Counted from the first letter of the stretch, positions 44,792-51,575 are shown. The stretch is 64,000 nt of DNA from an uncultured Bacteroidales bacterium (GCA_949282265.1 CASDOZ010000005.1:173678-237677); one strand, 5' to 3'. A program made the numbers and translations. Notes: generated by a model from the letters alone, not told the origin.

Positions 44792-46123
44792 ATGGCCCGT
44801 ACTAATTTCGGAAGCAAACTTGGCATCATTGCAGCGGCGGCCGGCTCCGCCGTAGGTTTAGGCAACATCTGGCGTTTCCCGTATGAACTCGGACAGCAGG
44901 GCGGCGGTGCATTCCTGCTGGTCTATATATTGTGTGTGTTGTTGTTGGGATTACCCATCATGCTGGCGGAACTGCTGATAGGACGCATGGGACAGCATAA
45001 CGTAACGGGTGCCTTCCGCAGCATCGGACATCCGCGCTGGCGGTTTATCGGCTATGCCGGCGTGCTGTGCTCGTTCCTGATTATGGGTTTCTATTGCGTC
45101 GTGGCCGGCTGGACCATTGAATATATCTGGCAGGCCATCACCAACCAGTTTGCCGACAAATCGACGGCCGACCTGGCGGCGGCATTCGCCGATTTCAGCA
45201 CGCGCCCCATACGCCCCATTATCTGGATGGTTTTGTTTGTGGGCATAACGTGTTATGTCGTACTCGCCGGCGTACAAAACGGCATTGAAAAAAGTGCGAA
45301 AATCCTGATGCCGGTCCTGTTCGTGCTGCTGCTCGTGCTCTGCCTGCGCTCACTGACCCTGCCCGGAGGTCTGGAAGGAGTGGCCTTCCTTTTTCAGCCC
45401 GATTTCAGCAAGATAACGCCGGAAGTGGTGTTGAGTGCCATGGGACAGGCATTTTTCTCGCTCAGCCTCGGCATGGGCTGCATGATTACCTACGGTTCCT
45501 ACATAGACAAGAAAAACAACCTGGAACACACAGCCTTGCAAGTTACCGGATTAGACACATTGGTAGCCGTTTTGGCCGCCATTGCGATTTTTCCGGCCGT
45601 GTTCGCGCTGGGCATCAATCCCGCACAAGGCCCCGAGCTGGTGTTCATCACCTTGCCGAACGTATTCGCGCACATTCCGGGAGGCTACATTTGGACCATC
45701 GCCTTTTTCGTGCTGCTGAGCATAGCCGCGCTCACCTCGACCATTTCGTTGCTGGAAGTCATCACGGCTTTTATGAACGAAGAATGGAAATTGCCGCGCC
45801 GGAAAGCGGCCATTATCGCCAGTTGCATCATTGCCGTGCTCGGCGTGCTCGCTTCGCTGTCGCTCGGCCTGCTGAAAGACTATACGATAGCAGGCATGAA
45901 CTTTTTCGACCTGCTCGACAACTTCACGGCCAAATTCCTGATGCCGATAGGCGGACTGGCCATTGCCGTTTTCTGCGGCTGGGTACTCGACAGGAAACGC
46001 ATGGAAGCGGAGCTGTCGAACGGGGGAAAACTCAAGCTAAAATACCTGAAAGCGTTTGCTTTCCTGCTGAAATACATTACGCCGCTGGCCATTCTGGCTA
46101 TCTTTATTGACCAGCTTATGTAA
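44792..46123 (+). CDS. Sodium-dependent transporter, neurotransmitter:sodium symporter (SNF) family
   Basis: GLGNIWRFPY motif, about 11-12 TM segments, 443 aa. Confidence 0.9.
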   Translation: MARTNFGSKLGIIAAAAGSAVGLGNIWRFPYELGQQGGGAFLLVYILCVLLLGLPIMLAELLIGRMGQHNVTGAFRSIGHPRWRFIGYAGVLCSFLIMGFYCVVAGWTIEYIWQAITNQFADKSTADLAAAFADFSTRPIRPIIWMVLFVGITCYVVLAGVQNGIEKSAKILMPVLFVLLLVLCLRSLTLPGGLEGVAFLFQPDFSKITPEVVLSAMGQAFFSLSLGMGCMITYGSYIDKKNNLEHTALQVTGLDTLVAVLAAIAIFPAVFALGINPAQGPELVFITLPNVFAHIPGGYIWTIAFFVLLSIAALTSTISLLEVITAFMNEEWKLPRRKAAIIASCIIAVLGVLASLSLGLLKDYTIAGMNFFDLLDNFTAKFLMPIGGLAIAVFCGWVLDRKRMEAELSNGGKLKLKYLKAFAFLLKYITPLAILAIFIDQLM

Positions 46124-46215
46124 AAAAGACGACAACGGTATTTTCCATGCGTTGGATGCCAAAGCGTATTGACAGTTTTTTCATATTTTGCATGCCTGCA
46201 ACTGGTATTTTTTGC

Positions 46216-46223
46216 TAAATTTG
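46216..46223 (+). promoter_or_regulatory. -7 box TAAATTTG, candidate promoter of the methylase-nuclease operon
   Basis: Matches TAnnTTTG. It would produce a roughly 330-nt 5' leader before the ATG at 46563. Confidence 0.35.
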
Positions 46224-46320
46224 CAGCGATAAATCATACAAAAATTTCATTTTCAAATTATAGACGACTAACAGAAAAAAGAATTTATAACGACATATTA
46301 ATTAAGCATTAGCTATTATT

Positions 46321-46517
46321 CGCATTCAAAACAAAAGCGTCGGAAACTCTTGGTTTGATATAAATCGGATAAAGCATCATTCACGGAAAGTGTCATTTCC
46401 GTTGCACAATGTAAAAGTTAATGCTCGCGCTCTGGTGCGAGTATTTTCAATTGTGCAACGGGGTTCTCCGACGCTCCTCGTGAATGCGGTGAAAAGGCTC
46501 GCACCTATTTTTATTTC
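46321..46517 (+). other. Nested-helix structured element (candidate cis-regulatory leader or ncRNA) upstream of the methyltransferase gene
   Basis: Four nested complementary pairs: CGCATTCA 46321-28 / TGAATGCG 46481-88; AGCGTCGGA 46336-44 / TCCGACGCT 46467-75; CCGTTGCACAAT 46399-410 / ATTGTGCAACGG 46450-61; CTCGC 46424-28 / GCGAG 46437-41. A competing pair GGTGCGAG 46434-41 / CTCGCACC 46498-505 is followed by TATTTTTATTT. Confidence 0.5.
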
Positions 46518-46562
46518 GATCTGTTGTGATTGATAGCACATGCACAAAAACTATCAATCATC

Positions 46563-47540
46563 ATGGCAAACGAAAACCTCCAAGCCGCCCGGAAAGCCAA
46601 AAAAGACGAGTTCTATACGCAGCTTGCCGACATTGAAAGCGAACTAAAACACTACAAAGAGCATTTCCAAGGCAAAACCGTGCTCTGCAATTGCGATGAC
46701 CCGCGTGTCAGCAATTTTTTCCACTATTTCTCCTACAACTTTGAACGTTTGGGGCTGAAAAAACTGATAACCACTTGTTACAAAAACCAAAACCGTGATC
46801 TGTTCTCGCAAAACGACAGCGAGCAGGCCATTTATCTGGAATATTATGGCGACAAGGACGGCGACCGTGTGCCCAATCCCGAAGAAATAGGCGTGAAAAG
46901 ACTGAAAGGCGACGGCGATTTCCGCAGCGCGGAATGCATAGAACTGCTCAAACAGGCCGACATTGTTGTTACCAACCCGCCGTTTTCACTATTCCGGGAA
47001 TATGTGGCGCAATTGATGGAATACAAAAAGAAGTTTCTGATTATCGGAAACGTCAATGCAATTACCTACAAAGAAACATTCAAACTCATCAAAGAAAATC
47101 AACTATGGATGGGGGCAAGCATTCACAGTGGCGACCGTGAATTTGGCATCCCTGACGATTATCCGCTTAATGCTGCCAGTTGCCGCATCGATGAAAACGG
47201 CAAGAAATATATTCGTGTTAAAGGAGTGCGATGGTTTACAAATCTGGATTACCCCGAACGCCACGAGAACCTGATCCTTTATAAAAACTACAATCCCGAT
47301 GAGTACCCGAAATACGACAACTACGATGCCATAAACGTGGACAAGACCGCCGACATTCCCATGGACTATGATGGCGCAATGGGCGTACCGATAACGTTTC
47401 TGGACAAATACAACCCGGAACAGTTTGAGATATTGGGAATAGATAGATATATAAAAGACAATCCACATTACGGTCATAGATTTAAAATCAACAATAAAGA
47501 AATTTACGCCCGCATTTTAATCCGTAAAATCAAAAAATAA
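46563..47540 (+). CDS. N6-adenine DNA methyltransferase, EcoRI-methylase-like family
   Basis: N-terminal KKDEFYT block and catalytic motif IV VVTNPPFSLF. Start at ATG 46563 (MANENLQ). AT-rich relative to flanking genes. Confidence 0.75.
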   Translation: MANENLQAARKAKKDEFYTQLADIESELKHYKEHFQGKTVLCNCDDPRVSNFFHYFSYNFERLGLKKLITTCYKNQNRDLFSQNDSEQAIYLEYYGDKDGDRVPNPEEIGVKRLKGDGDFRSAECIELLKQADIVVTNPPFSLFREYVAQLMEYKKKFLIIGNVNAITYKETFKLIKENQLWMGASIHSGDREFGIPDDYPLNAASCRIDENGKKYIRVKGVRWFTNLDYPERHENLILYKNYNPDEYPKYDNYDAINVDKTADIPMDYDGAMGVPITFLDKYNPEQFEILGIDRYIKDNPHYGHRFKINNKEIYARILIRKIKK

Positions 47541-47546
47541 ACAACC

Positions 47547-48629
47547 ATGCAAATAGAACTCAAGAAAATCACCGTTCGCGACCTGACGGCCGGTTATACG
47601 GACAATGCCGAGAACGGCGTATTCGGCTATGGCGGGAAATTGGACATCCGCCCGCCTTACCAACGTGAATTTATCTACAAGGAAAAACAGCGCAATGCTG
47701 TTATCGACACGGTCGTGCAGGACTTCCCGCTCAACGTCATGTATTGGGCAACACGTGAGGACGGCACGTTCGAGGTCATTGATGGCCAACAGCGCACCAT
47801 CAGCATTTGCCAATATGTCAATGGCGACTTTGCCTTCGACATGCGCTACTTCCACAACCTGCAAACCGATGAACAGGAACAAATTCTGGACTATGAACTG
47901 ATGGTTTACGTTTGCAGCGGTTCCGACAGCGAAAAGCTGCAATGGTTCAGAACCATCAACATTGCCGGGGAAAAACTTACCGAACAAGAATTGCGCAACG
48001 CCGTATATTCCGGCCCGTGGGTGAGCGATGCCAAACGCTATTTCAGCAAGAACGGTTGCGCGGCATACGGCATGGCAAGCAAATACATGAGCGGTTCCCC
48101 TATCCGCCAAGACTATCTGGAAACGGCCATCGACTGGCTCTCTGGCGGAAACATAGAAGTGTATATGGCCAACCACCAACACGATGCAAACGCCAATGAA
48201 CTATGGCTTTATTTTACATCTGTCATTAATTGGGTGAAAATACTTTTTCCAAAATACCGGCGCGAGATGCAGAGCGTCCAATGGGGATTCCTATACAACA
48301 AACTAAAATCCAAGCCATTTGATGCCAATTCTTTGGAACAGCAGGTAGCCAAACTAATGAGTGACGACGATGTAACAAAAAAATCAGGCATCTACGAATA
48401 TGTACTCACCGGCAACGAACGCGCCTTGAACATCCGCGCTTTTACGGACAACATGAAACGCGAAGCCTATGAACGGCAACAAGGAAAATGCCCGTTGTGC
48501 AACGGGCATTTTGAGCTTTCAGCCATGGAGGCCGACCACATAACGCCTTGGCATGCCGGCGGCAAAACCATAGCCGGGAACTGCCAAATGCTCTGCCGCG
48601 ACTGCAACCGCCGGAAATCGGGAAAATAA
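47547..48629 (+). CDS. DUF262 (ParB/GmrSD-N-like) domain fused to a C-terminal HNH nuclease
   Basis: DUF262 signatures RPPYQREFIY and VIDGQQRT. The C-terminal HNH reads CPLCNGHF...ADHITPWHAGG...NCQMLCRDCNRRKSGK. It starts 6 nt after the methylase stop. Confidence 0.75.
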   Translation: MQIELKKITVRDLTAGYTDNAENGVFGYGGKLDIRPPYQREFIYKEKQRNAVIDTVVQDFPLNVMYWATREDGTFEVIDGQQRTISICQYVNGDFAFDMRYFHNLQTDEQEQILDYELMVYVCSGSDSEKLQWFRTINIAGEKLTEQELRNAVYSGPWVSDAKRYFSKNGCAAYGMASKYMSGSPIRQDYLETAIDWLSGGNIEVYMANHQHDANANELWLYFTSVINWVKILFPKYRREMQSVQWGFLYNKLKSKPFDANSLEQQVAKLMSDDDVTKKSGIYEYVLTGNERALNIRAFTDNMKREAYERQQGKCPLCNGHFELSAMEADHITPWHAGGKTIAGNCQMLCRDCNRRKSGK

Positions 48630-48670: not shown

Positions 48671-50014
48671 TCATTTGCAGAAACTGCAACTGTCGCACTT
48701 GCTGCCTTCGCCGCGCAGACGTTTCTCCACCAGCAGGCGGATGCGTTCTTTCAGCACATCGACGCGGATATTCTCAATGACATCGTGCACGAAGGCGAAC
48801 ATCAGCAGCAGCCTGGCTTCCTGCTCCGAAATGCCGCGTTGGCGCATGTAGAACAAAGCCGATTCGTCCAGCTGGCCGGTAGTGGCTCCGTGCGAGCACT
48901 TCACGTCATCGGCATAGATTTCCAACTGCGGCTTGGTGCGGATACGGGCGGTCGGCGACAGCAGGATATTGCGGTTGGTCTGGTAGGCAGCCGTTTTCTG
49001 AGCATCTGGTGCCACCTTGAGCAGGCCGTTGAACACGCCCATCGAATTTTCTTCCAGAATATATTTGAACAACTCGTTGCTGCGGCAACCGGGCCGGTTG
49101 TGCATAATGGCCGTCGTGTTGTCTATCAGCTGGTGGCGGCCGCCTACGGTCATGCCGCACAGCATTGTGTCGCAATCTTCGCCGTCCAGGTCAATCTGGA
49201 CCGTGTTGCGCGTAATGCCGTTGTGCAGGGTGATGATATTGGCCAACAGGTTGGAGCCGGCCTGTTGCTGCACGAGCAGCGAACAAATATTGCACATGTT
49301 TTCCGACGTGCTTTCCAGCTTGTAGTGTTCATAGTTGGCATGTGCCCCGAGGAAAACCTCCGTGGTGCGCGTCGAGCAGAAGCGCGCGCCTCCCATTGCG
49401 TGGTCGCACACCAGCAGCTTGGCGGACGCACCCTCTTCCAGCACAATCAGGTTGTGGCTGTTCGCCATAAGGTCGGCATCGGAACGCATGATGTTGACCA
49501 GCTGCACCGGCCGGTCGAGCGTTACACCGGCAGGCACGTACATGAAGAAGCCATCCTGCGCAAACGCGCCGTTAAACGCGACAAACGGGTCGTCCTTGCG
49601 CTCCGCGAGCCTGGACAGGTAGGGTTCCACCAGTTCGGGACGTTCTTCGGAAACCTGTTTGAGGCTGCCAATGATCACTCCGGCGGGCAACTGCTGGGCG
49701 GCTGTCCGTGCATCGGAATAGAACATGTCGTTCACGACAAAATACATGTAGGACTGTATGCCCGGCACATCGCAATGGAACACCTCATACGGATTGACCG
49801 GAAACGCCAGGCGGTTCAGGTTCAGGCCGTAGTCCACGGCAAACACATCACCGAAATCCGTATGGCGGTAGCTTTCCGTGCGGCGCGTCGGGAAACCGCT
49901 GCGGCAAAAACGTTCAAAGAACATGTCGCGGGCGGCATTGAGCGCCGGCGCAGCATTGTTTTTCAGCGTTTCCGCGTATTGTCCGTACAGGTCTATGTAA
50001 GTCTGCTCATTCAT
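48671..50014 (-). CDS. sufD: Fe-S cluster assembly protein SufD
   Basis: 447 aa with C-terminal [29 protein letters not shown]. Overlaps the sufC stop by 4 nt. Confidence 0.9.
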
Positions 50015-50772
50015 ACCGTTTCCTGCTTAATCCAGTCGTAGCCTTTTTCTTCCAGTTCGAGTGCCAGCTCCTTGGTGCCCGTCTTGACGATGCGCCCATC
50101 GTACAGGATATGCACGAAATCAGGAACAATATAATCCAGCAGGCGCTGGTAGTGCGTAATGACAATGCTTGCGTTGTCGGGCGTCTTCAGCTTGTTCACG
50201 CCGTTGGCCACGATACGCAACGCATCGATGTCGAGGCCGGAGTCCGTCTCGTCCAGGATGGACAGCTTCGGCTCGAGCATGGCCATTTGGAATATCTCGT
50301 TGCGTTTTTTCTCGCCGCCGGAAAAGCCCTCGTTCACCGAGCGGTTGGTCAGCTTGTTGTCCATTTCGACCAGTTCCTTTTTCTCGCGCATCAGCCGCAG
50401 GAAATCGGAAGCCGACAACGGCGGCAGGTTGTTGTGCTTGCGGTGTTCGTTCACGGCCGCCCGCATGAAATTGACCATGCTGACGCCGGGTATCTCCACC
50501 GGGTATTGAAAACTCAGGAATATGCCTTCGCGGGCACGCACCTCGGGCGGCATGTCCAGCAGGTTCTTGCCGTTGAACGTAACGCTTCCTTCCGTAACGG
50601 TGAAAGCCGGATGGCCGGTCAGCACCGACGACAAAGTCGATTTGCCGGCGCCGTTCGGGCCCATTATGGCATGTACCTCGCCCGCGTTCACGGTCAGGTT
50701 CACGCCCTTCAATATCTCCTTGCCGTTGATGGCGGCATGCAGGTTTCGTATTTCCAACATCATAGTTTTCAT
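50011..50772 (-). CDS. sufC: Fe-S cluster assembly ATPase SufC
   Basis: LEIRNLHA...GPNGAGKST...[11 protein letters not shown]...[14 protein letters not shown]. Start taken at ATG 50772 (the ORF opens at 50796). Confidence 0.92.
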
Positions 50773-51127
50773 GTACTTTTTACAATTCAGGCGCAAAAAT
50801 AATCATTTTTTTCCGAGCACGAAGCATTCCGATGTCCCTTTGTGATAATTCCGCCCGGCAATGCCGCCACGCCGCCACGGCAAAGCAGACAAAACGGGCG
50901 AGAAGCCACTCAAGGCCAGATGGCTCATGGGCACGCGGAAAGAAAGCGGCAGTAAATAAAGCAGCAAGAACCGGAAGCCCAGAACCAGAACAAAGGCACA
51001 GCGACCTAAGGCAGGAAATCCATAAGGGAAAGTCCAGACCGAAAAACCAAATAACGGAGAACATGGTTTATTTTGAACCTTTCAGACATTATATTTATTC
51101 ATAGCTTATTTGGATATACACAATTGT

Positions 51128-51379
51128 TATTTATCCATAAACAATATGATATTGCACATACGCAAGTAGTATTTATCTATAAACAATATCATATTGCGTG
51201 TACGCAAGTAGTATTTATCTATAAACAATATCCTATTGCGTGTACGCAAGTAGTATTTATCCGAAAACAATGTCCTATTGCGTGCACGCAAGCAGTATTT
51301 ATCTATAAACAATGTCATATTGTGCTTGCGCAAGCAGCATTTATCTGCAAACAATGTCCTATTGTGTCTGCGCAAGTAT
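51128..51379. repeat. Tandem array of six exact 42-bp-period units (plus degenerate flanking copies), each with two palindromes
   Basis: Units at 51128, 51170, 51212, 51254, 51296 and 51338. Consensus TATTTATCTATAAACAATRTCMTATTGCGTGYACGCAAGYAG. It contains TTTAT-CT-ATAAA and TTGCG-N4-CGCAA (the unit at 51254 carries the perfect 14-nt palindrome TTGCGTGCACGCAA). Degenerate echoes occur at about 51086-51127 and 51380-51440. Confidence 0.9.
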
Positions 51380-51575
51380 ATTTTATAGAAAAACAAAGCC
51401 AACTTATGCTTATATGCTTATAGTATATGCATAAACAATTTACTTTTTACATAATCCGGATATAATTTATTGTTTGCAGCTTAAATCATGCGTATATAAA
51501 ATTAAAATTCATATATTTGCAGGGAAAACATTATATGCCAAACAGGATTTGCCCATCCTTAACAACCAAACAGCC

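Follow-up and report, generated by a model that had tools for sequence, protein, structure and literature searches.

A DUF262-HNH nuclease gene paired with an EcoRI-family adenine methyltransferase gene: a probable type II-like restriction-modification cassette from an uncultured Bacteroidales bacterium

What does a textbook EcoRI-type methylase do beside a nuclease built of parts known only from modification-dependent enzymes? This question is raised by two adjacent genes at positions 46563-48629 of a 64,000-nucleotide (nt) stretch of DNA from an uncultured Bacteroidales bacterium (GCA_949282265.1, CASDOZ010000005.1:173678-237677), the whole of which is hereafter called the window. The product of the first gene is an EcoRI-family N6-adenine DNA methyltransferase, and that of the second is a putative endonuclease in which a DUF262 domain is fused to an HNH nuclease domain. 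A first-pass annotation had taken the pair for a candidate non-canonical restriction-modification (R-M) or defence module and had offered two logics for it, namely cleavage blocked by modification or a hybrid that senses methylation. We consider it probable, at roughly 75%, that the pair is a two-gene, type II-like R-M cassette in which methylation would block cleavage. This reading is favored because the methylase (M) and nuclease (R) genes are strictly paired and co-evolve, because the catalytic motifs of both proteins are intact and because both proteins match type II profiles.

An EcoRI-family methylase and a DUF262-HNH nuclease

Both open reading frames (ORFs) were found on the + strand where the first-pass annotation had placed them; they are intact and their lengths are typical for their families (Table 1). 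Every motif it had quoted was located in the two proteins: DEFYT (residues 15-19) and TNPPF (137-141) in the methylase, and PPYQREF (36-42), DGQQRT (79-84), CPLC (315-318), DHITPWH (330-336) and CRDCNRRK (350-357) in the nuclease. The ORF listing opens the methylase frame at 46530, at an alternative upstream TTG, and runs it to 47540; since homologues begin at ATG 46563 with the pattern MANE.L.AA.K.KKDEFYTQ, this ATG was taken as the start. The spacer between the methylase TAA, which ends at 47540, and the nuclease ATG at 47547 is ACAACC, and with only 6 nt between them the two genes are probably co-transcribed; a look for transcription evidence turned up no clear RNA runs. Separate M and R genes, adjacent and on the same strand, are what a type II R-M system would have.

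The first protein is, as had been claimed, an EcoRI-family adenine methyltransferase. It matched the Pfam family EcoRI_methylase (PF13651) over model positions 1-344 of 345 (E=1.5e-145) and the PADLOC model MTase_II (PDLC03297) end to end (E=3e-128). It was 53% identical over 322 aligned residues to the genuine M.EcoRI (325 vs 326 amino acids, aa), for which we used the gene beside 'type-2 restriction enzyme EcoRI' on the E. coli plasmid pU90-3, as located by tblastn against plasmids. The blocks DEFYTQ, CNCDDPRVSNFF and VVTNPPFSLFREY are common to the two proteins. The full-length PF13651 match, together with an NPPF motif (138-141) that is the same as in M.EcoRI, indicates that the catalytic and S-adenosylmethionine-binding parts are present. 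The 73 methylases that are linked to a DUF262-HNH gene were 47-62% identical to M.EcoRI, and in a neighbour-joining tree the EcoRI-linked clade did not lie cleanly outside the DUF262-HNH-linked methylases. Elsewhere, a methylase of this family is fused to a Dcm-type cytosine methylase in a protein of ~700 aa on the L. plantarum plasmid p9 (L173), and another has a 230-aa hypothetical protein encoded downstream on the C. coli conjugative plasmid pOR12CC42 (L170).

The fusion of DUF262 to a classical HNH, also part of the first-pass annotation, was borne out by Pfam matches of the second protein to GmrSD_N and to HNH (PF01844). The matches in the nuclease were of the GmrSD_N and HNH type only; none to an EcoRI family was found, nor any to DUF1524 (PF07510) at E<=0.01 in the Pfam scan. 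The HNH domain carries CPLC, D330-H331, N345 and CRDC followed by N354, so that both CxxC pairs and the catalytic residues are present. In an alignment of 56 nuclease relatives (37-83% identical), Q39, R40, D79, G80, R83, C315 and N345 were invariant, and Q81, Q82 and H331 were conserved in at least 90% of the sequences. The DGQQR motif forms the nucleoside triphosphate (NTP)-binding pocket of DUF262 (PMC10952713). Since the catalytic and DGQQR residues are conserved, the protein looks, by its sequence and predicted structure, like an active HNH enzyme with a preserved ParB-type nucleotide pocket.

An AlphaFold2 model built from the 56-sequence alignment had a mean predicted local distance difference test score (pLDDT) of 91.9 and showed an alpha/beta domain at the N-terminus, then a long stretch of helices (residues ~157-310) and, at the C-terminus, a beta-beta-alpha unit. 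A first model from a shallow alignment was dropped, as its pLDDT was 67 and its N-terminus useless. Foldseek searches of the PDB with the accepted model gave no full-length structural match at E<=1e-3, and a solved structure for this architecture was found neither by Foldseek nor by sequence search of the PDB. The N-terminus resembled ParB and Noc bound to cytidine di- or triphosphate (CDP/CTP; ParB-CDP 6sdk, probability 0.98) as well as sulfiredoxin, and the C-terminus resembled the Gme HNH nickase (4h9d), McrA, Cap5 and Cas9 HNH domains. The HNH nicking endonuclease 4h9d was also what the PDB sequence search matched to the HNH region.

Pairing, spread and prior cataloguing of the family

A pattern scan of one genome per species gave 80 nuclease loci, which span Bacteroidota, Pseudomonadota, Campylobacterota, Bacillota, Actinomycetota, Chloroflexota, Spirochaetota, Patescibacteria of the Candidate Phyla Radiation (CPR) and two archaea. 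Cultured carriers of the cassette include Fibrobacter intestinalis ATCC 43854 (L035), Neisseria perflava CCUG 17915 (L044), Flavobacterium aestuarii (L005), Ligilactobacillus agilis La3 on pLa3_1, and Macrococcoides canis on a plasmid. An EcoRI-family methylase gene was found upstream on the same strand in every locus that had upstream sequence (76/76). The gap between the two genes was 30 nt or less in 34 of these 76, and a 4-nt overlap was common. Methylase and nuclease identities, taken pair by pair, were correlated (r=0.55, Mantel p<=0.001). A gene call of 688 aa (P0146) joins EcoRI_methylase, GmrSD_N and HNH in a single fusion, although this is one example to be taken with caution, its locus not having re-translated to the query. 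Surveyed in this way, the DUF262-HNH architecture belongs to a conserved module, and the invariable pairing together with the co-evolution argues against a chance adjacency.

In 12 loci extra genes lie between the methylase and the nuclease, examples being found at L001 5021-5950, L074 4949-5992, L008 5134-5997, L013 5447-6004 and L067 4085-5999. Among the kinds encountered were helix-turn-helix (HTH)-Fic/DOC, RhuM, Bro-N, ORF6N and DUF2130 with T5orf172. Such passengers are typical of R-M operons and defence islands, and their presence is therefore consistent with an R-M system. The pair was also found on small plasmids of Macrococcoides, Ligilactobacillus, Enterococcus, Lactiplantibacillus, Aeromonas and others, where PGAP names the products 'adenine-specific methyltransferase EcoRI family protein' and 'DUF262 domain-containing protein', and in phage-like DNA and contigs. 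This distribution across phyla, plasmids and phages indicates that the pair moves laterally, and since R-M systems typically ride on such elements it speaks for the R-M reading as well.

The nuclease family is very large. A word-indexed search of a 90%-identity collection returned at least 8000 clusters, all 8000 scored candidates having E<=1e-5; among the best 120 matches, which were 73-99% identical, 117 were exactly 360 aa long and the others 359, 366 and 369 aa. When the 50%-identity representatives were searched exhaustively, there were 8043 hits at E<=1e-3, including 553 clusters at E<=1e-30. The PADLOC model REase_II (PDLC03418, 'Type II restriction enzyme') aligned with residues 1-360 of the window nuclease over model positions 1-372 of 372 (E=2.4e-148) and matched all 56 of the diverse relatives too, while the PADLOC models for modification-dependent (type IV) enzymes gave no match to the window nuclease. 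Since the REase_II and MTase_II models match end to end, a type II R-M entry for the family already exists, and the module is not an unrecognised one. The first-pass annotation had allowed that the pair might already be known as a characterised system; the PADLOC search bears this out in part, for the cataloguing of the family. A literature search that included reviews found no mention of a DUF262-HNH protein partnered with a methylase, and a 2025 review covers DUF262 only under modification-dependent enzymes and SspE. The window pair is thus another member of a catalogued, very widespread and apparently uncharacterised type II-like R-M family, one that extends over bacteria, CPR, archaea, plasmids and phages.

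Probable methylation-blocked restriction and its alternatives

The comparison with the EcoRI system shows both how close and how different the cassette is. The methylase is a full-length homologue of M.EcoRI, and both systems are two-gene cassettes that are often plasmid-borne. In contrast, the DUF262-HNH nuclease is unrelated to R.EcoRI, whose fold is PD-(D/E)XK, and genuine EcoRI loci carry a different nuclease gene, annotated 'type-2 restriction enzyme EcoRI'. The gene order is M-R here rather than R-M as in EcoRI, and a methylase-first order fits an R-M system because protection is needed before restriction. With GmrSD, BrxU and SspE the nuclease shares an N-terminal DUF262 with QR and DGQQR and a C-terminal His-Me finger nuclease. 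It differs from them in having a zinc-finger HNH (PF01844) instead of DUF1524 (DHxxP), in its 360 aa vs solved chains of 560-580 residues, in its constant methylase partner where they stand alone, and in a predicted logic that is modification-blocked rather than modification-dependent. The HNH-type type II restriction enzymes KpnI, SphI, NlaIII, PacI and Hpy99I (PMC4081073) likewise combine a beta-beta-alpha-metal HNH and its CxxC...CxxC zinc site with an adenine methyltransferase partner, but none has been described with ParB/DUF262 and there is no sequence similarity outside the HNH core. The anti-phage proteins NsnA of Menshen and PD-T4-2 have DUF262 domains that match that of the window nuclease (PADLOC NsnA E=9e-28, PD-T4-2_A E=2e-13; residues ~30-160 only), but the Menshen partners NsnB/C are not adjacent here, the neighbours being an SNF transporter and sufD.

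We propose that the methylase would mark the host copies of a short recognition sequence and that the zinc-finger HNH, with H331 as the general base and with N345 and N354, would cut DNA without the mark, a double-strand cut presumably requiring dimerisation. The helical middle and the DUF262 (ParB/Srx-like) domains could provide DNA recognition. More speculatively, the invariant QR/DGQQR pocket might be an NTP-binding or -hydrolysing switch that licenses cutting; it may act as a switch or clamp of the ParB kind, or simply be a scaffold for DNA binding. Of the two logics offered by the first-pass annotation, the modification-blocked one is the best reading of the R-M pairing and the type II profile, and the methylation-sensing hybrid is not supported. 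That methylation blocks cleavage itself is a step that we infer, as are the recognition site, any NTP dependence and a role in phage defence or plasmid addiction.

Several observations weigh against a type II-like cassette. Classical type II enzymes do not usually have a conserved NTP pocket, and its presence here raises doubt as to whether this enzyme acts with no NTP. The characterised DUF262 nucleases found in the literature (GmrSD, BrxU and SspE) are all modification-dependent or modification-sensing. The curated families of NCBIfam have no model for either protein and the PGAP name of the nuclease is no more specific than its DUF262 domain, so the type II label may rest on prediction alone. 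None of the candidate sites gave a signal in tests of site avoidance, GAATTC having an observed/expected ratio of 0.72 in carrier loci vs 0.75 in control loci. Finally, a 39%-identical nuclease homologue (P0238) is encoded on a phage-like contig (L175) without an EcoRI-family methylase, possibly a phage with another way of protecting its DNA; the neighbours of P0238 are a family B DNA polymerase and a nucleoside 2-deoxyribosyltransferase.

It is possible, with odds well short of even, that DUF262 makes the enzyme a new mechanistic class of R-M nuclease, in which an NTP switch or clamp would license the HNH on unmethylated GAATTC-like sites, or in which the domain would read host N6-methyladenine (m6A) in the manner of SspE to cut foreign DNA. 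If true, a type II-looking operon would be run by machinery that is otherwise known only from modification-dependent (type IV) and phosphorothioate-sensing enzymes, and its nuclease would be among the most widely spread uncharacterised R-M nucleases. A nuclease whose DUF262 reads the m6A mark of its partner, either with marked self DNA activating or directing HNH nicking of invaders, as in SspE, or with methylated DNA being cut and the host spared, appears improbable. The precedents are real: all characterised DUF262 nucleases sense DNA modification, GmrSD and BrxU recognising modified cytosines and SspE being a DUF262 NTPase-nickase that needs host phosphorothioate marks, and the pocket motifs are invariant in the present family. 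BrxU and SspE are also among its structural neighbours, BrxU (7p9k) as the best whole-chain Foldseek hit, but at E=4.4e-3 and E=0.14, respectively, with template-modelling (TM) scores of ~0.2, the similarity is weak and limited to domains. Moreover, the nuclease domain is a classical HNH and not DUF1524, the protein is far shorter than the solved chains of BrxU and SspE (580 and 560 residues), the type II model matched end to end where the type IV models gave nothing, and an enzyme that cleaved what its obligate methylase partner had made would be suicidal.

The same biochemistry as in our favored type II-like cassette could serve a different biological role, that of a selfish addiction cassette which has little anti-phage value and stabilises plasmids or islands by post-segregational killing. 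The pair is among the few genes on many small (4-10 kb) plasmids, and its phyletic spread is very wide and patchy, copies from different phyla being 60-75% identical. The cassette of one related strain shows ~2% divergence, against 5-14% for the flanking genes, a hint of more recent cassette exchange. Addiction is compatible with defence, however; defence-island-type passengers, as they are generally known, occur between M and R, and several related gut strains have stably retained the chromosomal copy at this site. We regard a mainly selfish role as very doubtful. It is hardly credible that the nuclease is decayed or serves a non-restriction function, such as that of the packaging or homing-type HNH proteins of phages, which would in effect make the methylase an orphan whose role is epigenetic. 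Methylases of the EcoRI family are indeed encoded in the absence of this nuclease, on a B. breve megaplasmid, on the C. coli plasmid and in the L. plantarum Dcm fusion, and phage packaging modules commonly hold HNH genes. Against this, the window nuclease is of full length, shares 99% identity with other copies and retains all of the conserved residues, and the 76/76 pairing and the co-evolution speak against it too.

If the type II-like cassette is of the plain kind, it would be a widespread yet ordinary R-M system, possibly an EcoRI isoschizomer or a neoschizomer that cuts differently. If the NTP pocket is functional, the family would show a DUF262 sensor wired for modification-blocked rather than modification-dependent restriction, which bears on the interconversion of type II and type IV systems. 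For this genome, the pair would be a mobile defence or addiction cassette lodged amid housekeeping genes.

Genomic setting, recognition site and leader

Table 1. Features of the cassette and its surroundings in the window.
Feature	Position	Strand	Basis or remark
SNF-family transporter	44792-46123	+	5' flank of the pair
Intergenic leader, 439 nt, 36.7% GC	46124-46562	+	upstream of methylase
N6-adenine DNA methyltransferase, EcoRI family, 325 aa	46563-47540	+	Pfam PF13651, PADLOC MTase_II PDLC03297
Methylase motif DEFYT	46605-46619	+	sequence
Methylase catalytic motif TNPPF	46971-46985	+	sequence
Putative restriction endonuclease, 360 aa (DUF262, helical middle, HNH)	47547-48629	+	Pfam, PADLOC, AlphaFold2
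DUF262/ParB-Srx-like domain, residues 34-154	47646-48008	+	Pfam GmrSD_N E=9.5e-20
DUF262 motif YQREF	47652-47672	+	sequence
DUF262 nucleotide-pocket motif DGQQR	47781-47798	+	sequence
Beta-beta-alpha-metal HNH nuclease domain, residues 315-358	48489-48620	+	Pfam HNH E=6.6e-12
sufD	48671-50014	-	3' flank; sufD-sufC convergent with the pair

The window belongs to the lineage of a gut-metagenome organism, and the sequencing runs that contain the stretch include chicken-gut samples. The pair is flanked as first described, by the SNF transporter gene on one side and sufD on the other (Table 1). It had also been called visibly AT-rich, which is true relative to the immediate flanking genes (46.8% vs 54-57% GC); the effect is modest, and since the whole window averages only 50.1% GC the pair is not an outlier, standing at the 23rd percentile of equal-sized windows. 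The view that sufS would be expected at this place found no support, as sufC-sufD here also lacks an upstream sufB. Over 48671-50796 and 50797-51473 these two genes stand alone, with no sufB upstream and no sufS downstream. Two distant relatives (L103 and L116) have sufB-sufC-sufD followed by an ORF of 208-209 aa, of which no family-library search was made; sufS is ~400 aa long, and this ORF is therefore too short for it. Six tandem copies of a 42-nt unit (86% matches) occupy 51128-51383, within the AT-rich gap that separates sufC from a DUF6261 gene and that sufB would normally fill.

Horizontal acquisition had been proposed from these local features. The mobility of the pair in general is supported by its spread over phyla, plasmids and phages. 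Acquisition at this particular site is less well supported, as the AT-richness is modest, the sufS argument fails and an empty site was not found in related strains, the cassette having the same location in all four of the related gut-metagenome runs compared with the window (4/4). In the Joint Genome Institute (JGI) metagenomes, the best sufD relatives were just 64% identical.

Because the methylase is homologous to M.EcoRI, its sequence makes GAATTC, or another site that shares its AATT core, the most likely recognition site. Inferring the site from word avoidance was attempted and rejected, since GAATTC was equally depleted in carriers and controls and GATC, which had the strongest depletion of all 4-mers when the carrier loci were pooled, was undepleted in 19% of these loci. 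In the window GATC occurred 41 times vs 167 expected. Other words depleted there relative to Markov expectation were CTGCAG (2 vs 26), GTCGAC (0 vs 14) and GTATAC (0 vs 8), and GGACC, GGCCC and GTCAC were likewise depleted. As multiple words are so strongly depleted, the host lineage seems to have a past with several other R-M systems, none of them tied to this cassette.

A perfect palindrome of 13+13 nt (AAAATGCCCGTTG tg CAACGGGCATTTT) at 48485-48512 overlies the codons for the zinc-finger CPLCNG in the nuclease gene; its core, TTGTGCAACGGG, recurs in the hairpin of the leader at 46451-46462, which may be by chance. The leader presumably holds the promoter of the pair. It contains no + strand ORF of at least 50 aa and no gene for a controller (C) protein, it has no Rfam match, and scans for sigma-70 promoters and terminators found nothing above shuffled controls. 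A nested hairpin of ~110 nt at 46378-46486 has a predicted folding energy (dG) of -56.5 kcal/mol (z=-6.4 vs shuffles), and a regulatory role for it may be suggested from the sequence. The nested inverted-repeat element as a whole spans 46378-46505, and an alternative stem pairs 46434-46449 with 46490-46505 and is followed by TATTTTTATTT, giving it a terminator-like look. Three related strains carry a different sequence, ~169 nt long, in place of the segment 46320-46492.

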